This document shows positions 30,264 to 47,012 of a DNA stretch of 64,000 bases, one piece after another. The DNA lies in contig NZ_MQWA01000001.1 of the NCBI RefSeq assembly GCF_002954445.1, positions 1,988,733-2,052,732 of the forward strand. Direction: 5' to 3'. This DNA comes from Rubritalea profundi (GTDB taxonomy: Bacteria; Verrucomicrobiota; Verrucomicrobiia; Verrucomicrobiales; Akkermansiaceae). The notes under the pieces are model-generated. The model saw only the letters and a program-made list of their open reading frames with translations. It did not search any database and was not told the origin of the DNA. Position 1 is the stretch's first letter, and the number at the start of each line of letters is the position of its first letter. Position numbers and translations under genes: made by a program.

Positions 30264-30935
30264 ATGGCGGAATCTGCTAGAATTTCATCTAGTGTTTTCG
30301 TCGTGAAAGAACTCTTCGAACTCTCATTAAATCCCTGGGTATTACCATTTACAATACTGTTAGCTTTATGCTGCCTCTATTGGTTGTTGGCCTTGTTGGG
30401 CACTGTGGACATGGACTTCATTGAATTTGATTTCGACTCAGATACGGATTTTGATGGAGATGTTGGAAATTCAGGCGGTCTACTTACAAGCTTCCTGAAA
30501 CTGGTAAATGCTACCGATGTGCCATTCATGTTGGTGTTAAGTGTCGTGTCGTTGTGTAAGTGGCTCATCAACATCGCAGCCATACTGTACTGGAACTCTG
30601 ATGGGCTCGTATGGCTGGGGTTGGCAACATGGGTCATCGGCTTTTTTGTGAGCTGCCTTATAGCAGCAGTTCTCACAAAGCCGCTGGTGCCAGTGTTTAA
30701 GGCATTTCGTGCAGGAGAAGATGATGAAGAACCCATCCTAGGGCAATCCGCTACCGTTGTAACATCCCATCTAACTGAAAAATTTGGGCAAGTGCGTGTG
30801 TTACGCGAAAAAGGGGCAACGGCATTGGTCAATAGTAGATTGGCCAGTGGCCAGCCCGTACTCAAAAAAGGTGACATCGTCACGATTATCAGCAGAGACG
30901 AGAAAGATGGCGTCTACATTTGCACACAAATTTAA
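30264..30935 (+). CDS. NfeD/YqiJ-like membrane protein with C-terminal OB-fold beta-barrel
   Basis: 223 aa. Several TM helices, an acidic loop (DFDSDTDFDGD), then a soluble beta-rich tail (GQSATVVTSHLTEKFGQVRVLREKGATALVNSRL...GDIVTIISRDEKDGVYIC). Sits immediately upstream of the flotillin gene, as in yqiJ-yqiK pairs. Confidence 0.6.
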   Translation: MAESARISSSVFVVKELFELSLNPWVLPFTILLALCCLYWLLALLGTVDMDFIEFDFDSDTDFDGDVGNSGGLLTSFLKLVNATDVPFMLVLSVVSLCKWLINIAAILYWNSDGLVWLGLATWVIGFFVSCLIAAVLTKPLVPVFKAFRAGEDDEEPILGQSATVVTSHLTEKFGQVRVLREKGATALVNSRLASGQPVLKKGDIVTIISRDEKDGVYICTQI

Positions 30936-30958
30936 AACAAAAATAAGAACATACTATA

Positions 30959-33043
30959 ATGATAGATACACTGACAAATATAGGGACAATGCATTACTTG
31001 GCATTCGATTTCAGCACTCTACTTGGTGGGGGAGCCATATTCATAGTAGTCCTCGCCGTAGTCGTTTTATGGGTGTTTGCTAACTGTTTCCGTAAAATAG
31101 AAAAAGGCACAGCATTGATTCGTACAGGAATTGGAGAGACTAAAGTAACCTTCACAGGGATGATGGTTTTTCCCGTTGTCCACCGCGCGGAACACATGGA
31201 TATCTCATTGAAGCGCATTGAGATCGACCGGACAGGGAAGAATGGATTGATCTGTAAGGACAACATGCGTGCAGACATCAAGGTTGCGTTCTTCGTTCGT
31301 GTGAACAACGTGAAGGAGGAGGTCATCCGTGTGGCTGAGGCCATCGGCTGTGACCGAGCTTCTTCTGAAACTGAAATTCGTGTGCTTTTTGATGCGAAGT
31401 TTTCCGAAGCACTCAAGACTGTGGGTAAACAGTTTGATTTCATTCAGCTCTACGAAGAGCGTGACACATTCCGTGAAGAAATTCTTAAATGCATCGGTAC
31501 TGATCTCAACGGGTTCGTGCTCGATGATGCTGCGATCGATTACCTAGAGCAAACTCCGATTGAGTCGCTCGACCCTGATAACATTCTTGATGCTGAAGGT
31601 ATTAAGAAAATTACTGAGCTTACAGCAAATCAAGCAAAGCTCTCTAACAATATCCAACGCGATAAAGAAAAAGTCATTAAGCAGCAGGACGTGGAAGCGA
31701 GAGAAGCTATCCTCGAGCTTGAACGTCAACTCGCTGAGACTGAAGCTAAACAGCAACGCGAAGTGCAAGTTGCACAATTCCGTGAGCAAGCAGCATCAGA
31801 TCAGGTGCGTGAAGAAGAGAATCAGAAAGCCGAGCGTGCTCGCATTTCTTCAGAAGAAGAAATTCAAGTCGCTGAAGAGAACAAGCAACGTCAGGTGCTC
31901 GTAGCATTGCGCAATAAAGAGCGTACTGATGCTGTCGAAATTGAGCGTGTCATACGTGAACGTGACCTCGAGATTATCGAGCGCGAGCGTGTCACTGAAC
32001 TCAAATCGATCGAGAAAGAGAAGTTTGTAGAGATCGAGAAGAAGAACATCCAAGAGGTCATCAAAGACCGCGTGGCTCTAGAGAAGACAGTGGTTATCGA
32101 GCAAGAGAAGATCAAGGATACAGAAGCCTTTGCTGGAGCAGACCGTCACAAGCAAGTGACTGTTACTAACGCTGAAGCAGATGCAGCGGATCGACTCATC
32201 CGTGAAGTGAAGGAAGCGGAAGCTCGTAAAGAGGCTGCCATTCTCAAGGCCGACGAAGAAGCCTATGAAGTTCAGAAGTCTGCTGAAGCTAGCAAGCTAG
32301 CGAGTGAGATGAAAGCTGAAGAGCGCATTATCACAGCTGAAGCGGCACTCACAGCATCTGAGAAAGAGGCAAGTGCTAAGAAGATGCTCGCTGAGGCTGT
32401 GACCAAGGAAACTTCTGCTGAAGGCCTCGGCCAGGTAGAGGTGAAGCTTGCAGATGCAGAAGCTCTCAAGCAGCAAGGTGCGGCACAGGCTGAAGTAGAC
32501 GCTCTCAGCTTCGCCGCAGAAGCGAAGGGTATCGAGCAGAAAGCTGCTGCGATGAAGCTCTTTGAAGAAGCTGGTCAGGACCACGAAGAGTTCAAGCTCG
32601 AGCTTGATAAGCAGAAGATCATCGAACTTGCCGAGATCGATGTCCAACGCCAGGTAGCAGAGCAGCAAGCTGTGGTTATCGGTGAAGCTCTCAAGCAGGC
32701 TAAGATCGACATCGTCGGTGGTGATTCAGCATTCTTTGACCAGATCACCAGTGCGGTGACGAAGGGCAAAGTCGCTGACCGCATCGTCAATAACTCTAAG
32801 GTTATTACAGACGTGAAGGAGACATTCTTCAATGGTGACCCAGAATACTTCAAGAGTCAGATCAGTAGCTGGATTGAGCAATTCGGTATCGAAACTGAAG
32901 ACGTCAAGAACCTAACCGTCAGTGCATTGTTAGGGAAGATGATCCCACAAGCCGACGGTGAAACCCGCGGAAAGCTAGTCGGGCTCCTAGGAGCAGCAGA
33001 ACGCTTCGGCCTCACCAACTCACCAGCCTCAAAATTCCTCTAA
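30959..33043 (+). CDS. Flotillin-like SPFH/Band-7 domain protein (YqiK-like) with a long E/A/K-rich coiled coil
   Basis: 694 aa. N-terminal TM helix, SPFH domain (TFTGMMVFPVVHRAEHMDISLKRIEI...), then about 350 aa of heptad-like EA-rich repeats. Confidence 0.8.
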   Translation: MIDTLTNIGTMHYLAFDFSTLLGGGAIFIVVLAVVVLWVFANCFRKIEKGTALIRTGIGETKVTFTGMMVFPVVHRAEHMDISLKRIEIDRTGKNGLICKDNMRADIKVAFFVRVNNVKEEVIRVAEAIGCDRASSETEIRVLFDAKFSEALKTVGKQFDFIQLYEERDTFREEILKCIGTDLNGFVLDDAAIDYLEQTPIESLDPDNILDAEGIKKITELTANQAKLSNNIQRDKEKVIKQQDVEAREAILELERQLAETEAKQQREVQVAQFREQAASDQVREEENQKAERARISSEEEIQVAEENKQRQVLVALRNKERTDAVEIERVIRERDLEIIERERVTELKSIEKEKFVEIEKKNIQEVIKDRVALEKTVVIEQEKIKDTEAFAGADRHKQVTVTNAEADAADRLIREVKEAEARKEAAILKADEEAYEVQKSAEASKLASEMKAEERIITAEAALTASEKEASAKKMLAEAVTKETSAEGLGQVEVKLADAEALKQQGAAQAEVDALSFAAEAKGIEQKAAAMKLFEEAGQDHEEFKLELDKQKIIELAEIDVQRQVAEQQAVVIGEALKQAKIDIVGGDSAFFDQITSAVTKGKVADRIVNNSKVITDVKETFFNGDPEYFKSQISSWIEQFGIETEDVKNLTVSALLGKMIPQADGETRGKLVGLLGAAERFGLTNSPASKFL

Positions 33044-33097
33044 GTAGAGGAAATAGGAGAACCACAGACTACACGGAAAACACAGAAAGCCTGCTAA

Positions 33098-33472
33098 ATG
33101 GAATTTTTATATAAAGATGAAAGTTACGCAGTCCTAAGTGCAGTTTTCGAAGTGTATAAAGACAAGGGCTGTGGTTTTCTTGAGGCTGTATATCAAGAGT
33201 GTTTGGAGATCGAGCTGAGGGATCAAAAAATCCCTGCGGTTTCCAAACCTAAACTTGAATTAGAGTATAAAGGGCACCGCCTTCGCAAAATGTATGAGCC
33301 GGATCTGATCTGCTACGGCAAAATTATATTGGAGCTAAAGGCATGTAAATCGATTGACTCCGCCCACATCGCCCAACTTCACAATTATCTTAAAGCTACG
33401 GGTATGAGAGTGGGTTACGTGATTAACTTTGGGAGTTATCCCAAAGCGTCTTTCCAAAGAGTAATCGTATAA
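33098..33472 (+). CDS. GxxExxY family protein (PD-(D/E)xK nuclease-like fold)
   Basis: 124 aa. Contains the family pattern ...VLSAVFEVYKDKGCGFLEAVYQECLEIEL...YEPDLICYGKIILELKA. Confidence 0.7.
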   Translation: MEFLYKDESYAVLSAVFEVYKDKGCGFLEAVYQECLEIELRDQKIPAVSKPKLELEYKGHRLRKMYEPDLICYGKIILELKACKSIDSAHIAQLHNYLKATGMRVGYVINFGSYPKASFQRVIV

Positions 33473-33488
33473 ATTTCAAAAGCTTTCC

Positions 33489-36400
33489 GTGGATTCTGTG
33501 TGGTCTGTGGTTAAAAAAAAGATGTCAGAAGATAATAAACAGTTAGAAGGTGGAGCTTACGAAGTGATTCGGGCTCGCTTGGAGAAGCAGTCGGTCGAAC
33601 TTCGTTCACGCTTGGATGCGTTGAACGTGGAGCGGAAGGAAATCTTTGGTGCCGTCGAGTCGTCCCTTGTGTCGACCGAGCGTGTCACCACTGAGCACAA
33701 CTGCGTGCCGCGAGATCTCATAGCGATCGGTAAAAATCGCTTCCTATTCGGATACAATATCCAATTTGGACTGAAGCAGACTACAGATCTCGCAGATGTC
33801 TTTGCTGTCTATCAATACGACCCATCTGATCATAGTTTTACTAAACTATCTATCGATGAGGTAATCGACGATAGCGAGTTTGCGACTGATTTCGCCTACC
33901 TTTACAAGTACTACAAGCAAACGATCTTTGCGAAGTTCATGCACATCGGACCGAATGTGTATATCGCATTACGCGTCGGCAAGGACATCACAGACGTAAA
34001 GACCTTCAAGTTTGTCATCAATGGTGACGGCTCGCTGAAGTATATGGGCAACCGTTTTGATTACGAATACGTTTTCCCTGATCAACATGGCTTTAGCTGG
34101 GTGCGGGTAAATCGCGACATGCACCGCGGTGGTGAGCATCCGCATATTTCTATCGAAGATAAAGTTTTCGTGGAAACTGTGGGAGGTGACCTAACAGTTA
34201 AAATCGAAGATAATACAGCGGATGGCAAAGGTATCTATGCGGAGGAGGTAGTCGACCAGGACCAAACCCTCGATGACGCGGAGATTTCCTATGCGATTGT
34301 TGGGCCGCTTATCATTCTTAAAATTCTTCCTTACCGTGAGAAGAACTACCGTTACCTCGTTTTCAATGAGAAGAACCAATCGGTTGACAGGATCGATGCG
34401 ATTGGTGAGTCCTGTGTGTTGCTGCCAGAAGACCATGGCATCATCTTTGCCAATGGTTACTACCTGCTCAGTGGCGAACTCAAGACATTCGATCATGGAC
34501 TTGAGCATATGCGTTTCGAGCGCAAGATTTCCTCAGCCAATGGTGAGGACACACTCTTTGCGTTCTACAATCGTACCAGCGGTGACTACGCCTTACTCAA
34601 CTACAACTTAATCGAGCAAACCGTAGAAACTCCAGTGGTCTGTAATGGCTACTCGGTCTTCGACAATGGTGAGCTGATCTATTTTAAGACCGAGGACGAG
34701 GCGCAGAAGCACCACACCCTCCAAGTCTGGCAAACTCCCATTCTCTCTGCAGATGCCGTCGCATCGCAAGAGTTGGATAAAGGAAGTTATCTCTATAAAA
34801 TTGGTAATGCCGAGCTGGTTTCCGCAATGGCGGAGAGTAAAGAACTTCTGACGCTGTTAGATAAAGAAGATAACTATGCCGGTCTCTATATCGACCTAGT
34901 GAAGCAAGCGACAGTCTTGCTGGATAGTTATTTCTGGATCTCTAATGAGGCGACCAAGAATCTCGCCGAACCACTTGAAGGAATCCAACAAGCGGCGAAT
35001 AGTGCGATTGAAGAATTTGAGAAAGTTCAACGTCTGAGGAAGAATTCGGCGGAACGAATCAAGGATGTCGCTGCGCGCTGCGAGCGTCTATTACGCGATG
35101 CCGAGCACAGTCCACCAGACGACATTGTCGGTTTTGTGAAGCAACTTGCTGGCCTACGCACCATCCGTGGTGAAGTCATTGGGCTGCGCGAAATGCGCTA
35201 CATGGATCTCGCTCGGGTAGAGGAACTAGAGCAGGGGATTATTGCAGCCACTGAGATTGTCTCAGGAAAGACGGTGAGCTTCCTACTTCTCCCCGAGGCG
35301 CTCGATCCCTACAGAGCGCGTGTTGGTGAGCAACGCAAAATTCTAGCATCCCTCACAAAGGTGACTGAGGCCGATGACCTAGGTGAAGAAATTTCTGATG
35401 CGGGCAAAGAGCTAGAGATGTTGATCGATGTGGTGTCCAACCTCAAGATCGAGGATTCCACTCAGACCACTGCTATCATCGAAAGTATCTCGGCTATCTA
35501 TTCCACGCTCAATGGAGTCAAAGCTGAGCTTAAAAATAAGCGTAAAGAGCTCTCGCGCTCCGAGGGTGTTGCCCAGTTTGGGGCGCAGATGAATCTTCTT
35601 AGCCAGGCAGTGGTCAACTACCTTGACCTTTGCGATACCGCTGAAAAGACCGACGGTTACCTCACCAAGGTGATGGTGCAGATCGAAGAGCTTGAAGGAC
35701 GTTTCGCCGAGTTCGATGAATATGTAGAGGAACTCACGACCAAACGTGAAGAAGTCTACAATGCTTTTGATGGACGCAAGCAACAGCTGCTAGAAGTTAA
35801 GAGTAAACGCGCTAACAGGTTGATAAAGTCGGCTGAGCGCATCCTCAGCGGAATTTCGAACAGAGCTTCTGGGTTTAAAGAAATCAACGAGATCAATGGC
35901 TACTTCGCTGGCGATCTGATGATCGAGAAGGTTCGTGATATCATCGACGAGCTCATCGATCTCGGAGATAGTGTTAAAGGCGATGACATTCAGACTCGTC
36001 TTAAGACAGTCCGTGAAGATGCAGTCCGAGCTCTCAAGGATCGCAATGAACTCTACGTCGATGGTAAAGATGTCATCCAGTTCGGTAAAAATAAATTCAA
36101 CGTAAACACTCAGGAACTAGAGCTGACGGTGTTGCCACAGGATGGGGTGATGAATTTCCACCTCAGTGGTACGGATTTCTTTGAGGAAATTTGCGATCCA
36201 GAATTTCTCGCGACAAAAGATGTCTGGAACCAAGAAGTCATTTCTGAAAACAAAGCAGTCTACCGAGCTGAATACTTAGTGAAGCAACTTCTCGATTCAG
36301 ATCGAGGGCGAGAGCTGGCTAAGCAACCAGAGAGCTGGGTCGCCGACTTGTTACTGCAAACCGTGCAAGAATTCATGCAGCCTCGCTATGCGGAGAGCTA

Positions 36401-38639
36401 TACCAAAGGTGTGCATGATAACGATGCAGCTAGGCTGTTAGCTGCTATTTTACCGATCCACACCGGGATTGGTCTGCTGCGCTTCGATGCGCGCGATCGA
36501 GCACTAGCGATGCTTTTCTGGATTGCTTGGGAAGGTGAGAACAAGGAATTGCTCGCGGGTAAAATCCGGGCTCACGCCAAGCGCAGAGAAATATTTGGGA
36601 TCAATCAGGATGAACAACACGCCTTGGTCAACGAACTCGTCGGCCAGTTAAATACTTGGTCTGGGGTGACTCTAGTTGCTGAGGCTAGAGCTGAAGACGC
36701 AGCTGCTTACCTGTTTGAAGAACTTTCAAATGGTGAGGCCTTTGTTGTCTCTCCCGAAGCTGCGGAGCTAGTGAAGAAATTCAAGCACAGCCTCACCGTT
36801 AAGCACGCAGAGAAGTCCTATGAGGAAACTTTACTAGCTGATGCTGTGGCTAATTACCAAATCAACCAGGACTGGTTAGCTGGCTTCCTGTCGAATAGTC
36901 AGGAGCAGGATGACGCAGGAACTGTCGTTGCTAAATCAGTAGTAGCAGAGGCTGCAGCTCATCTCACTCGGGGAGGCTTTGACCAGCGCGATGTGAAAAA
37001 CGTGCGCGTCTCAGCTGAGGTTTCTGGAATGATTGGTGACCACAAGGTCATTTCTAACGGAGCCTACCAGCTGGATTACAATCAATTCTCCGAGCGCTTA
37101 TCATTGTTCGAGCGAGAGGTCGCCCCCACCTTTGCTTCGTATCAAAAACTCAAGCAAGAGCTAGTGGAGGAAAAGCGTCAGACGATGCGTCTCGATGAGT
37201 TCAAGCCGAAGGTGATGAGCTCGTTTGTTCGCAACAAACTTCTCAATAACGTATTCCTTCCATTGGTCGGAGACAATCTGGCCAAGCAAATAGGAACAGC
37301 CGGCAAGGACACCCGTACCGACCGCATGGGCTTGCTCTTGCTTATCTCACCTCCAGGTTATGGTAAAACAACCCTGATGGAGTACGTGGCGAACAGACTG
37401 GGGCTGACCTTCATGAAGATCAATGGTCCAGCATTGGGCCACAATGTGGTCTCGCTCGATCCATCTGAAGCTCCTAACGCCACCGCTGCAGAAGAAGTGA
37501 AGAAGCTCAACTTGGCTTTGGAGATGGGAGACAATGTCATGATTTACCTCGATGACATCCAGCACACACATTCTGAGTTTTTGCAAAAATTCATCTCACT
37601 CTGTGATGGTCAACGTAAGATCGAAGGAGTCTACAAGGGCGTTGCTAGAACCTACGACCTTCGTGGTAAGAAAGTCGCTGTCGTGATGGCGGGTAACCCA
37701 TACACCGAGACTGGTGGTAAGTTCCAGATCCCTGACATGTTAGCGAACCGTGCCGACACCTATAACCTAGGTGACATCATCGGCGGTCATGCCGAAGACT
37801 TCAAAGGTTCCTACATCGAGAACTCGCTCACTTCTAACACCATCTTGAGTAAGCTCTCTAGTAGAAGCCAGAAGGACGTCTACGCCGTCATGCAGATTGC
37901 CCGTACTGACAGCCAAGAAGGTGTCGACTTCGAGGGCAACTACACACCAGAGGAGATCGGTGAGATGGTGCGCGTGACCAAGCACCTCTATAGGGTACGA
38001 GATTCTATTCTCCGTGTGAATCTCGAGTACATACGCTCGGCTGCGCAGGAAGACGCCTATCGTACTGAGCCAGCATTCAAGCTCCAAGGGTCCTACCGAA
38101 ACATGAACCGCATCGCCGAAAAGGTATTGCCGCTGATGACTGAGAAGGAGGTCGAGGGGCTAGTGGTCGATCACTACGAGAACGAATCTCAGACACTCAC
38201 TAAGGGAGCAGAATCTAACATCCTAAAGTTCCGTGAAATGGAGAATCTCCTCACTGAGGAGGAGACCGAAAGATGGGATGATATAAAGAAAGGCTTTTCT
38301 AAGAACCTCTTGTTAGGAGCTGCTGGTGGTGACAACGATCCGGTCGCCAGAATCGTAGCTCAGCTCACTCAGTTCAACGATGGACTCGACTCTATCAAGG
38401 ACGGCATTGTCCAAGCCTCGACCCACTACGCCGAGCCACAAAGCCTTGGAGAAACTACGATTAGCCATCTAGAAAAAATCATCGCCGGCCTCCGTGCTGT
38501 GCCAGTCGAGGTCGACATCAAAATCGTCCCCGTCGAAGACGTCGATGGAGATGGCCAAAACGATGGTAAGATCTCGGGCATCGAAAAGAGCAAGAAATCT
38601 CCAATAGATATCCAGCCTGAAGTCCGGCAAGGCGAGTGA
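33489..38639 (+). CDS. Giant (1716 aa) uncharacterised protein with a single C-terminal RarA/clamp-loader-like AAA+ ATPase module
   Basis: Uninterrupted 5.15-kb ORF. Walker A is LLLISPPGYGKTTLMEY (nt ~37340-37390). Walker B/sensor is VMIYLDDIQHTHSEF (nt ~37540-37585), followed by AVVMAGNPYTE (compare RarA TTENPYF). The upstream ~1280 aa has no assignable domain, with beta-rich N-terminal ~450 aa followed by a long helical, coiled-coil-like middle. Confidence 0.7.
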   Translation: MDSVWSVVKKKMSEDNKQLEGGAYEVIRARLEKQSVELRSRLDALNVERKEIFGAVESSLVSTERVTTEHNCVPRDLIAIGKNRFLFGYNIQFGLKQTTDLADVFAVYQYDPSDHSFTKLSIDEVIDDSEFATDFAYLYKYYKQTIFAKFMHIGPNVYIALRVGKDITDVKTFKFVINGDGSLKYMGNRFDYEYVFPDQHGFSWVRVNRDMHRGGEHPHISIEDKVFVETVGGDLTVKIEDNTADGKGIYAEEVVDQDQTLDDAEISYAIVGPLIILKILPYREKNYRYLVFNEKNQSVDRIDAIGESCVLLPEDHGIIFANGYYLLSGELKTFDHGLEHMRFERKISSANGEDTLFAFYNRTSGDYALLNYNLIEQTVETPVVCNGYSVFDNGELIYFKTEDEAQKHHTLQVWQTPILSADAVASQELDKGSYLYKIGNAELVSAMAESKELLTLLDKEDNYAGLYIDLVKQATVLLDSYFWISNEATKNLAEPLEGIQQAANSAIEEFEKVQRLRKNSAERIKDVAARCERLLRDAEHSPPDDIVGFVKQLAGLRTIRGEVIGLREMRYMDLARVEELEQGIIAATEIVSGKTVSFLLLPEALDPYRARVGEQRKILASLTKVTEADDLGEEISDAGKELEMLIDVVSNLKIEDSTQTTAIIESISAIYSTLNGVKAELKNKRKELSRSEGVAQFGAQMNLLSQAVVNYLDLCDTAEKTDGYLTKVMVQIEELEGRFAEFDEYVEELTTKREEVYNAFDGRKQQLLEVKSKRANRLIKSAERILSGISNRASGFKEINEINGYFAGDLMIEKVRDIIDELIDLGDSVKGDDIQTRLKTVREDAVRALKDRNELYVDGKDVIQFGKNKFNVNTQELELTVLPQDGVMNFHLSGTDFFEEICDPEFLATKDVWNQEVISENKAVYRAEYLVKQLLDSDRGRELAKQPESWVADLLLQTVQEFMQPRYAESYTKGVHDNDAARLLAAILPIHTGIGLLRFDARDRALAMLFWIAWEGENKELLAGKIRAHAKRREIFGINQDEQHALVNELVGQLNTWSGVTLVAEARAEDAAAYLFEELSNGEAFVVSPEAAELVKKFKHSLTVKHAEKSYEETLLADAVANYQINQDWLAGFLSNSQEQDDAGTVVAKSVVAEAAAHLTRGGFDQRDVKNVRVSAEVSGMIGDHKVISNGAYQLDYNQFSERLSLFEREVAPTFASYQKLKQELVEEKRQTMRLDEFKPKVMSSFVRNKLLNNVFLPLVGDNLAKQIGTAGKDTRTDRMGLLLLISPPGYGKTTLMEYVANRLGLTFMKINGPALGHNVVSLDPSEAPNATAAEEVKKLNLALEMGDNVMIYLDDIQHTHSEFLQKFISLCDGQRKIEGVYKGVARTYDLRGKKVAVVMAGNPYTETGGKFQIPDMLANRADTYNLGDIIGGHAEDFKGSYIENSLTSNTILSKLSSRSQKDVYAVMQIARTDSQEGVDFEGNYTPEEIGEMVRVTKHLYRVRDSILRVNLEYIRSAAQEDAYRTEPAFKLQGSYRNMNRIAEKVLPLMTEKEVEGLVVDHYENESQTLTKGAESNILKFREMENLLTEEETERWDDIKKGFSKNLLLGAAGGDNDPVARIVAQLTQFNDGLDSIKDGIVQASTHYAEPQSLGETTISHLEKIIAGLRAVPVEVDIKIVPVEDVDGDGQNDGKISGIEKSKKSPIDIQPEVRQGE

Positions 38640-38805
38640 TCTACGTCAGCATGCTGATGAACTGCACCATACCAGCTAGACGTGCGATTCTTTATCGAGT
38701 CATTTTTGCACGTTACAGGGTGGGATTAGACATTTACGGGGTGACGCGGTCACCACTCAAATCAATACTCGGGCGATATCTCCATGTAGTCAGATTTATA
38801 CTCGT

Positions 38806-39225
38806 CCCTCACACTACACGACAAAAATTTAAGTACTGGATTCTACAATCAATGTGATCGCTCAGTGTGATCGCTCAGTGTGACAAAACCTTGGAGTGCT
38901 GAGGCTTGACGCAGCTCTGGTGAGGCTGTGGCTTGACACATGGGTAGGAGGTTTTCGGCTTTCCGTGTTCAGTGTTCCGACCGATAGGGTGAAGCCTGTT
39001 GCTGATTGTGTGGTCTGAGAGTTAGGGGAGTGGTTATATTCTGGGTGGTCCTGCCACCGCGCGCGTCAAGCCGCCCCAGCCACAGAGCTGTGTCAAGCCC
39101 CAGCACTCCAAGGGAGAAAGTGTTATTGACTCTGGTATGATGAACTTTGATGCATCAGATACCCATTTTGATAATTTTGAGAAATTCTGGTAATTCTGTA
39201 TGAAAAATTGTCGTGTAGTGTGAGC
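38806..39225. repeat. About 420-bp element with nested inverted repeats (MITE-like or structured ncRNA) in the 670-bp intergenic gap
   Basis: Outer 17-bp perfect inverted repeat: ctcacactacacgacaa (38807-38823) against ttgtcgtgtagtgtgag (39209-39225). Inner imperfect ~50-bp inverted repeat: ccttggagtgctgaggcttgacgcagctctggtgaggctgtggcttgacac (38889-38939) against gcgtcaagccgccccagccacagagctgtgtcaagccccagcactccaagg (39063-39113). There is also a 13-bp tandem duplication gtgatcgctcagt x2 (38863-38888). Confidence 0.45.
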
Positions 39226-39311
39226 GTCGACACGAAATCCCCCATTAAGTTTTACGATGGGCAGCAGCCCGCCCCAGTTACCCGTACGTTCGTTTGTTAG
39301 GGCTAAATAAC

Positions 39312-39674
39312 TTACCGACGAAATCCGTATTCTAATACAAAGAACTGCGGATTTAACTCAGCCAATGGACTACGAAGTTTCGCAAGTTCTTCTTCGGGGC
39401 CATGAACTTCTAGTCTGGTAAGTTCAGAAATATTTAATGCTTCTCCTAATAAGGAACCAACATTCTCTAGATGAGATAATACTCCTTCTGCATCCTGATA
39501 TCCCTCACGGCAATGCGCCAAATCCCCAGAAAAGCTGAACCCATAAAATAAGCACTTAGATTCTTCATTAGTAGCCTCAACAAACATTTCACAAAGTTCT
39601 TTGAATTCACCTAATTTACCTTCTGTTACTTTAAAGTAGGGCACTAGGGTGCAGCATTTGTCTGTTGTAGCCAT
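39312..39674 (-). CDS. ABM (antibiotic-biosynthesis-monooxygenase-like) ferredoxin-fold domain protein
   Basis: 120 aa. The pattern EGKLGEFKELCEMFVEATNEESKCLFYGFSFSGDLAHCREGYQDAEGVLSHL matches the ABM-domain consensus (E.G.L.Y.F......RE.Y.D.EA...H). The local sequence is AT-rich. Confidence 0.5.
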   Translation of the reverse strand: MATTDKCCTLVPYFKVTEGKLGEFKELCEMFVEATNEESKCLFYGFSFSGDLAHCREGYQDAEGVLSHLENVGSLLGEALNISELTRLEVHGPEEELAKLRSPLAELNPQFFVLEYGFRR

Positions 39675-45578: not shown

Positions 45579-47012
45579 GTGACTTGCTGGAGCGAATACG
45601 CGATGGAAGGACTACAGATGAGTTCATTTACCCCTTTTAGAGAAAAGATGGAGCAGGCTGGTGTCAGTGAGGCTGCTATCCTTAGTTTTGAGCGTAATTA
45701 CGCAATCTTGTGTGAAGGTAATTCTACCGATATTTCGGAAGAGAGCATTGATCCTGTGATAAAACTTCCTGAACTCGATGAGTTTTCCAATGATGGCGAA
45801 GAGTTCGATCCTGCATTGTTGGCTCAAACTGTAGTCATCAAGCTTAATGGTGGACTAGGGACTAGTATGGGGCTGCAAAAGGCTAAAAGCCTCCTTGAAG
45901 TGAAGGATGGTTCCACTTTCCTCGATGTTATCGTTGATCAAGTCTCCTACCTCCGCGACAGCACTGGAGCTCAGGTGAAGTTTCTTTTGATGAACAGCTT
46001 TAGTACTTCGGAAGATACGCTGGAGCACCTCGCTCAGTATGCTGACCGTGGCTTAGCCGCGAAAGAAGAGGTAGAGCTTCACCAAAATCAAATTCCTAAG
46101 ATTGACGCGGACTCGATGGGACCTGTGGAGTTTTCCGAGAACCCAAGCCTAGAATGGTGTCCGCCTGGCCATGGTGACCTCTATCCTGCAATAGCAGGTT
46201 CTGGCTGGTTAGATAAACTTTTAGCCGACGGTGTGAAGTACGCTTTCGTTTCTAACTCAGATAATTTAGGAGCAGTGCTCCACCCGGGAATTCTTCGTTA
46301 CTTCGCAGAAAGCACTAAGCCATTTTTGATGGAAGCCACGCGCCGAACTGAGGTCGATAAAAAGGGCGGGCATCTAGCAATTCGTAAAGCTGACCAACAG
46401 CTACTATTACGAGAGGTGGCACAAACTGCGGATTCTGATTTAATTGAATTTCAAAACATTGAGAAGCACCAGTACTTCAACACTAACAGCCTATGGGTAA
46501 ATCTCGAAGCTCTGAAGTCCGAGCTGGATGCTCAAGGAGGAGTTTTGCCTCTTCCGGTGATTATCAACAAGAAAACGGTCGATCCTCGTAATAAGAAGTC
46601 TAAGTCTGTTTACCAGTTAGAGACAGCGATGGGAGCTGCGATCGAGTGCTTCAAGAGGGCTGATGCGATTTGTGTGCCTCGTTCTCGCTTTGCCCCAGTT
46701 AAGACGACTGCAGATTTATTCACGCTTCGTTCTGATGCCTATGAAACTACCGAAGATGGTCGTATAGTCCTAGTTAAAGAGCGCGACGGTAAGCCGCCAG
46801 TGGTGAGCCTGAGCGATGAATATAAGTTGGTCGATAGCCTCGAAGGACTAGGTATTCCATCTTTAAAAGGGGCTACAAAGTTGAGCCTTAGTGGACCCGT
46901 GCGCTTTGCTGATATGGTAGAAATCCGCGGTACAGTTAGCATTAGCAATGAGAAACCCGGAACGTCTTGGATTGCTAATGGACTTTATCGAGACGAGGAT
47001 GTTGTCCTCTAA
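45579..47012 (+). CDS. UTP--glucose-1-phosphate uridylyltransferase, eukaryotic-type UDPGP family
   Basis: 477 aa. UDPGP family signature VIKLNGGLGTSMG, plus ...NSDNLGAV... and a C-terminal left-handed beta-helix region. The start may be one of the downstream Met codons. Confidence 0.75.
   Translation: MTCWSEYAMEGLQMSSFTPFREKMEQAGVSEAAILSFERNYAILCEGNSTDISEESIDPVIKLPELDEFSNDGEEFDPALLAQTVVIKLNGGLGTSMGLQKAKSLLEVKDGSTFLDVIVDQVSYLRDSTGAQVKFLLMNSFSTSEDTLEHLAQYADRGLAAKEEVELHQNQIPKIDADSMGPVEFSENPSLEWCPPGHGDLYPAIAGSGWLDKLLADGVKYAFVSNSDNLGAVLHPGILRYFAESTKPFLMEATRRTEVDKKGGHLAIRKADQQLLLREVAQTADSDLIEFQNIEKHQYFNTNSLWVNLEALKSELDAQGGVLPLPVIINKKTVDPRNKKSKSVYQLETAMGAAIECFKRADAICVPRSRFAPVKTTADLFTLRSDAYETTEDGRIVLVKERDGKPPVVSLSDEYKLVDSLEGLGIPSLKGATKLSLSGPVRFADMVEIRGTVSISNEKPGTSWIANGLYRDEDVVL

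Follow-up and report, generated by a model that had tools for sequence, protein, structure and literature searches.

A 415-bp non-coding element of Rubritalea profundi, very probably a MITE with the ends of an IS4-family insertion sequence

What occupies the long non-coding gap between two convergent genes of Rubritalea profundi? Within the 64,000-nt stretch of DNA analyzed here (the window), an initial annotation had singled out a nested inverted-repeat structure of about 420 bp (38806-39225) in this gap and had offered two readings of it, a MITE or a highly structured ncRNA of about 400 nt. We favor the first of these, and put at roughly 0.93 the probability that this is a non-coding MITE carrying the ends of an IS4-family insertion sequence (IS) that is common in marine and aquatic Verrucomicrobiota. 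Shorter than about 600 bp and non-coding, it has the traits by which MITEs are recognized: terminal repeats, dispersed copies, target-site duplications at other copies, and termini that it shares with an IS.

The complete element runs from 38809 to 39223 (415 bp), borders that we set where homology among seven aligned copies starts and stops; this is a minor correction of the extent first proposed. An nhmmer profile of the MITE matches 38810-39223 (E=3e-146) as the sole copy in the window, and neither BLASTN nor nhmmer nor a scan with the terminal repeat, allowing up to 3 mismatches, found a second one there; that scan gave only 2 matches in the 64 kb, with 0.16 expected by chance. The 17-bp perfect inverted repeat noted before is present (38808-38824 / 39208-39224, by repeat finder). 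Judged from the alignments, the element's own terminus is 16 bp of this, TCACACTACACGACAA on the plus strand at 38809-38824 and its complement on the minus strand at 39208-39223 (reading TTGTCGTGTAGTGTGA on the plus strand), because the copies align from TCACACTACACGACAA to its reverse complement and no farther; the 17th pair is a chance match in the flank.

The interior is elaborate. Its inner inverted repeat, previously described as imperfect and of about 50 bp, has arms of 49 nt that are 82% complementary (repeat finder), the left at 38889-38937 on the plus strand and the right at 39065-39113 on the minus strand. Each arm is associated with two GGCTTGACRC boxes, 27 nt apart and symmetric, at 38903-38912 and 38930-38939 on the left and, on the minus strand, at 39063-39072 and 39090-39099 on the right. 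All 4 boxes found in the window lie within the MITE, against 0.31 expected. Between the arms is a G/T-rich core of 127 nt (38938-39064, plus strand), earlier estimated at 120 bp and indeed skewed (GC skew +0.31, AT skew -0.37), with no similarity to the partner IS discussed below and no match in Rfam. The 13-bp tandem duplication reported inside the left end also stands (gtgatcgctcagt twice, 38854-38879, plus strand); every other copy has a single unit, and the duplication is therefore a slippage event private to the window copy. We considered whether the 49-nt repeat might be a second, nested MITE and found no support for the idea: the repeat is integral in both subfamilies, no duplication flanks it, and the GGCTTGACRC box never occurred outside the MITE family at the 136 loci examined.

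On its left, the MITE begins 169 nt past the stop of a gene for a 1716-aa DUF3686/DUF7902/AAA protein, which ends at 38639. On its right, it lies 88 nt past the stop of a gene for a 120-aa protein with no Pfam match, which ends at 39312. As had been anticipated, nothing protein-coding is apparent in between. ORFs inside the MITE reach only 20-45 aa, are broken between copies by 1-nt indels, and have no Pfam match. The 73-aa ORF at 38636-38857 (plus strand) is likewise judged spurious, as it was at the outset; it has no Pfam match, and it reaches from the giant gene's stop, which it overlaps, 49 nt into the left terminus of the MITE. Core ORFs have been annotated as "proteins" of 91-93 aa in two metagenomes (P0001 and P0002), a coding interpretation that we set aside given the 1-nt indels between copies and the lack of Pfam domains. 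We also discarded a link between the MITE and the genes next to it, since its copies adjoin unrelated genes at different loci.

The surroundings call for a few observations of their own. An apparent plus-strand operon at 30264-38639 lies upstream of the MITE and comprises a 223-aa ORF with a weak YqiJ_N match, a 694-aa ORF with no Pfam match, a gene for a 124-aa PDDEXK_3 nuclease, and the 1716-aa DUF3686 + DUF7902 + AAA ATPase gene; PADLOC returned nothing meaningful for this giant-gene cluster. Proteins of the window are 57-66% identical to those of genes in Verrucomicrobiota MAGs (Akkermansiaceae, Rubritalea, and "Verrucomicrobiota bacterium") and on a metagenome contig, L016; with the marine origin of the contigs that carry the element, this points to a marine member of the Verrucomicrobiales as host. 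GC skew is positive in nearly all 1-kb bins, and its cumulative value reaches 7.7. Because this holds whatever the orientation of the genes, the plus strand is probably the leading strand across 1-64000, with no origin or terminus inside.

Is the element repeated elsewhere? Contigs encoding the neighboring 120-aa protein supplied the first relatives, from marine metagenomes (Tara and others), and the spurious core ORF, used as a protein query, retrieved two ENA metagenome "proteins" that led to L011/L012 and L013, with three or four copies. The multicopy status that a MITE calls for is thereby established: at least six further loci, on marine metagenome contigs and in one MAG, carry the same element at 400-415 bp, and the copies are 81-97.5% identical over ungapped columns. 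Contig L001 holds, besides a first copy, a diverged one (L001_E2, L001:9840-10151), inverted and 3 kb away. L011 has a copy at 745-1148, with L012 representing the same locus from a different sample. Contig L013 holds two or three, among them L013a (L013:7971-8257, truncated) and L013b (L013:14205-14561). From MAG JBLHPP01 come the copy at L112:5062-6112 and another whose two sides lie on separate contigs, L129 and L092. Contig L002 is identical to the window.

The copies fall into two subfamilies, a long one (window, L011, L112, and L092) and a shorter one that lacks about 39 nt on the right (L013b and L001_E2). Every copy is intergenic; the flanking genes are convergent at the window copy, L001_E2, and L013a and co-directional at L011 and L013b. 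Outside the ENA and Logan assemblies the family is seldom met: a 22-nt core pattern had no exact match among the genomes of GTDB or the metagenomes of JGI. Viral contigs gave no match either, whether scanned for the terminus or for a pattern from the interior. All contigs with the 120-aa gene carry the MITE, and no empty site was recovered.

JBLHPP01, represented by contigs L092, L112, L122, and L129, was the only GTDB genome with the exact MITE family. It is labeled Crocinitomicaceae (Bacteroidota), while all other evidence points to a verrucomicrobial host; these contigs could be mis-binned or the MAG mislabeled. Its two copies bear on a further point. In the first, an insert of about 640 bp (L112:5383-6026), a decayed IS110-family element, sits at a box in the left inner arm of the MITE (GGCTT|CTTGAC). 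Fragments of this insert match DEDD_Tnp_IS110 (E=0.005) and Transposase_20 (E=0.0012), both under the Pfam cut-offs. In the second (L129:1-152), the MITE stops after GGCTT, and the adjoining DNA has stretches of 11 nt and 35 nt in common with the L112 insert. L013a, for its part, is cut off exactly at a box (edge at L013:8258). The GGCTTGACRC box may be a preferred target of IS110 elements.

A MITE needs a transposase from elsewhere, and a candidate source can be named. A search with the pattern TCACACTACACGACAAWWWTT matched 53 metagenome stretches and 69 GTDB genome stretches, and some 30 stretches proved to be complete elements of 1140-1212 bp with the MITE's terminal repeats at both ends. 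Matches in genomes were overwhelmingly to Verrucomicrobiota, including Rubritalea spongiae, Roseibacillus ishigakijimensis, and MAGs labeled Haloferula, Luteolibacter, Akkermansiaceae, and Verrucomicrobiales; a few fell outside, in a Crocinitomicaceae-labeled MAG, a Thermodesulfobacteriota MAG, and Salinibacter/Salinivenus. The terminal-repeat scan and nhmmer found no full-length IS in the 64-kb window. One partner copy, at L035:1625-4625, is split by a nested element of about 1.8 kb, which leaves 3001 bp between its termini; by eye only, the nested element is IS66-like, with an ORF of about 119 aa and a larger, frameshifted one.

The IS on contig L051 (L051:61-1203; the ORF was read in the stretch 56-1248) encodes a 380-aa DDE transposase in a single ORF without a frameshift. 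This protein matches Pfam DDE_Tnp_1 (E=1e-19) and NCBIfam transpos_IS4_2 (NF033591; 186 bits, cut-off 152), and it contains YRQRWGIETLFSHLK, that is, Y-(2)-R-(3)-E-(6)-K, the motif by which De Palmenaer et al. (PMC2266710) characterize the IS4 family. Perfect 7-bp duplications flank each of the 12 full-length copies that we checked in assemblies of isolates or of other MAGs, 7 of which come from the megabase-scale contigs of one MAG. Duplications in the IS4 family range from about 7 to 13 bp, compared with 4-6 bp in IS701, ISH3, and IS1634 (PMC2266710). The partner is thus an IS4-family IS with the size of the IS10 subgroup, yet with duplications of 7 bp where that subgroup has 9 bp. The lengths given in Table 1 of the same study are 9 bp (IS10) and 7-8 bp (ISPepr1); the partner's 7 bp falls within the range of the ISPepr1 subgroup.

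Among proteins annotated on plasmids, the best relative of the L051 transposase is that of ISAba1, at 35% identity. The partner resembles ISAba1 and the IS10 subgroup in its size of about 1.14-1.19 kb (size range from PMC2266710), its single frame-intact DDE transposase, its YREK motif, and its NCBIfam IS4_2 assignment, and it shares with ISAba1 a TACACGA(C/T)AAA block in the terminal repeat. In CP040054 the ends of ISAba1 read ctctgTACACGAtAAA and TTTGTCGTGTAcagag and are flanked by a 9-bp duplication, whereas the partner has 7 bp; they start with CT, those of the partner with TC. Hosts differ as well, being Proteobacteria for ISAba1 and the IS10 subgroup and mainly Verrucomicrobiota for the partner. 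ISAba1 also encodes a transposase, and the window element none.

How closely is the MITE itself related to this IS? By BLASTN over all loci, the two have their terminal 21-25 nt in common and nothing further inside. At the left, the MITE matches the transposase-upstream end of the IS exactly over 25 nt (to 38833, in the comparison with L051), which covers the 16-bp repeat and 9 subterminal bases; at the right, the match extends over 16-17 nt. An internal-deletion derivative would have an interior homologous to the IS beyond the termini, and we found no such homology in the MITE. Since 16-25 nt at the ends are all that is shared, descent from the partner IS by deletion is unsupported. The MITE has the build of a small mobile insertion cassette and not of a simple internal-deletion derivative, because everything between its ends (the 49-nt repeat, the four GGCTTGAC boxes, and the 127-nt core) is unrelated to the IS.

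The MITE is not alone in using these ends. At least four other short elements have the same or nearly the same 16-bp termini. Elements of 152 bp (L030, L039, and L126) and of 270-306 bp (L108, L113, and L124) are flanked by 7-bp duplications, and their interiors, like those of the 336-422-bp elements (L070, L094, and L116), are unrelated both to the IS and to the window MITE. A 413-bp element on L075 is a genuine internal-deletion derivative of the IS, in which remnants of the transposase gene are kept. Because the same ends bound short elements with unrelated interiors, several MITE families of Verrucomicrobiota that are unrelated to one another appear to be served by one IS4-type transposase with 7-bp duplications. 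That some of the short same-end elements lie in the Thermodesulfobacteriota-labeled MAG suggests a single transposase lineage that has crossed phyla and serves many MITE families.

Such classical bacterial MITEs as Correia/NEMIS of Neisseria, ERIC/IRU of enterobacteria, Nezha, and Chunjie are short elements without coding capacity, present between genes in multiple copies, with terminal repeats, target duplications, and long hairpins, and they act as recombination substrates. The window MITE has all of these general traits in common with them; it differs in its termini and in its parent family, and we know of no sequence similarity between it and any of the four. At 415 bp and with an internal 49-nt repeat, it stands at the large, complex end of bacterial MITEs. 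Another useful comparison is with MIC231 of the Bacillus cereus group, in which the repeats of IS231, also of the IS4 family, surround DNA unrelated to transposition. MIC231 cassettes are larger, at 0.7-3 kb, and carry passenger genes, in contrast to the 415 non-coding bp here. Their mobilization in trans by the cognate transposase has been demonstrated experimentally (reviewed in PMC6199540), and there too a single transposase type serves several cassettes.

Duplications of the target at other copies, a check proposed from the start, were found as a MITE would have them. Perfect 7-bp duplications flank the copies at L011 (TCCTTGA), L112 (TTTCTTC), and L129/L092 (AGTGGTA). The window copy has no clean one: the left heptamer, TCGTCCC (38802-38808), and the right, GCGTCGA (39224-39230), agree at 4 of 7 positions in register, and these are consecutive (CGTC). 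Given its perfect ends and no clean duplication, the copy is one of three things: old, recombined with another copy, or the product of a contig joined across the repeat. Many partner IS copies in short-read metagenome contigs also lack a duplication, which we attribute to chimeric joins across the repeat.

Contig L001 is informative in this respect. From window position 45667 to exactly 38808, where the left repeat has its outer edge, it is 99.3% identical to the window; beyond that point all similarity is lost, and DUF6288 genes adjoin the MITE in place of the giant-gene cluster. In the first copy on L001, two copies are joined as an exact hybrid, and the genes on one of its sides differ. Over the flank and the left 175 nt or so of the element this copy matches the L013b locus at 100% identity, from there on it matches the window at 100%, and the switch of parents falls within a shared stretch of only about 12 nt. 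Such a stretch is too short for a simple k-mer collapse, and so we infer a real recombination event; in that population the two copies probably recombined, the giant-gene side being replaced by the DUF6288 genes. More generally, from comparing contigs, copies appear to recombine, or assemblies to mis-join at them.

The same concern applies to the window. Two MITE copies might have been collapsed and joined in assembly, in which case the feature would be partly an artefact and its flanks not truly adjacent. We regard this as unlikely, yet as a possibility to be taken seriously. The window copy stands apart in lacking a duplication, when 12 of 12 IS copies in assemblies of isolates or other MAGs and 3 of 3 other intact MITE copies have one, and the missing duplications at short-read IS copies indicate that chimeric joins are common. 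Many short-read contigs stop inside the MITE (L003, L005-L009, and L138; L001 joins elsewhere), and the giant-gene flank is joined to the 120-aa-gene flank in one assembly only (the window, L002, and L137 being the same). The element is real in any case, however, and both of its junctions are independently confirmed, the left in Logan contig L138 and the right in many contigs (L001-L009). The CGTC agreement fits a decayed duplication, and the brevity of the switch in L001 argues for true recombination between copies rather than collapse.

The second of the original readings made the element, or its interior, a large structured ncRNA gene, with the pairing as RNA architecture and the copies as paralogous RNA genes. 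The predicted folds are certainly very stable (-178.5 kcal/mol on the plus strand; z = -7.9 there and -8.6 on the minus strand against shuffles), the interior is well conserved among copies, one A-U to C-G change in the inner stem of L013b is compensated, and a weak sigma-70-like site lies at 39147-39175. Strong folding on either strand follows from the nested inverted repeats, however, as it would from any DNA palindrome, and in the long stems neither strand has an excess of G-U mismatches, each kind occurring once in the window copy. Rfam, proposed earlier as a check for a known RNA family, gave nothing at the gathering score for the whole window and only noise (E 2.5-6.5) in 38500-39500 when hits were accepted to E<=10. 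For five full-length copies, RNAalifold predicted nested hairpins with an unfavorable covariation term (+7.2 kcal/mol) and 2 of 107 pairs compensated, values that 5-7 copies leave underpowered. A core conserved above the rest would have hinted at an RNA; in the seven-copy alignment, conservation is fairly even along the element, the left third is as conserved as the core, and the core itself holds the most variable stretches. With transposon ends, 7-bp duplications, and large stem indels among its copies as well, the ncRNA reading finds no support here, and we consider it the most improbable of those weighed.

Very improbable too, if a shade less so, is that a host feature has been exapted here, either a bidirectional terminator or insulator between convergent genes or a protein-binding cassette made of the four boxes. 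One can point to the convergent genes around the window copy, L001_E2, and L013a, and to boxes that are symmetric, evenly spaced at 27 nt, and exclusive to this element. Yet L011 and L013b have co-directional genes on either side, several copies (L001_E2, L112, L129, and L013a) have boxes that are missing or broken, and no intrinsic-terminator-like site was found in the element. A third idea reconciles function with mobility: the interior may be a selected module that has spread through verrucomicrobial genomes on IS4 ends, either a structured RNA or a palindromic cassette recognized by a protein or recombinase, its four boxes being bound by a factor of the host or of a mobile element and serving in addition as an IS110 landing pad. 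Two independent copies do have an IS110-family element at a box or beside it; even so, we hold this idea to be very improbable.

We therefore return to the MITE. We imagine that the 380-aa DDE transposase encoded by the IS, with its YREK motif, would bind both ends of the MITE in trans, then excise and insert it by the cut-and-paste chemistry established for IS4-family enzymes (Tn5, Tn10, and IS231). Mobilization in trans and this chemistry are what we infer from the shared ends. Staggered cuts of 7 bp in the target, once repaired, would leave the 7-bp direct repeats. The inner repeat, boxes, and core would ride along as passenger DNA, the window copy would be harmless between its convergent genes, and the dispersed copies could serve as portable homology.

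What is new here is another MITE of a well-known type, not a new RNA or a new system. For this organism, the finding has practical consequences. A transposon remnant explains the 670-bp gap after the DUF3686/AAA gene, and neither a riboregulator nor a small gene should be sought there. A dispersed repeat of about 400 bp breaks short-read contigs or joins them differently, and whether the giant gene truly adjoins the 120-aa gene should be confirmed before an operon or island boundary is drawn from it. For the phylum Verrucomicrobiota, which is poorly studied, the element adds modestly to the mobile elements catalogued so far.
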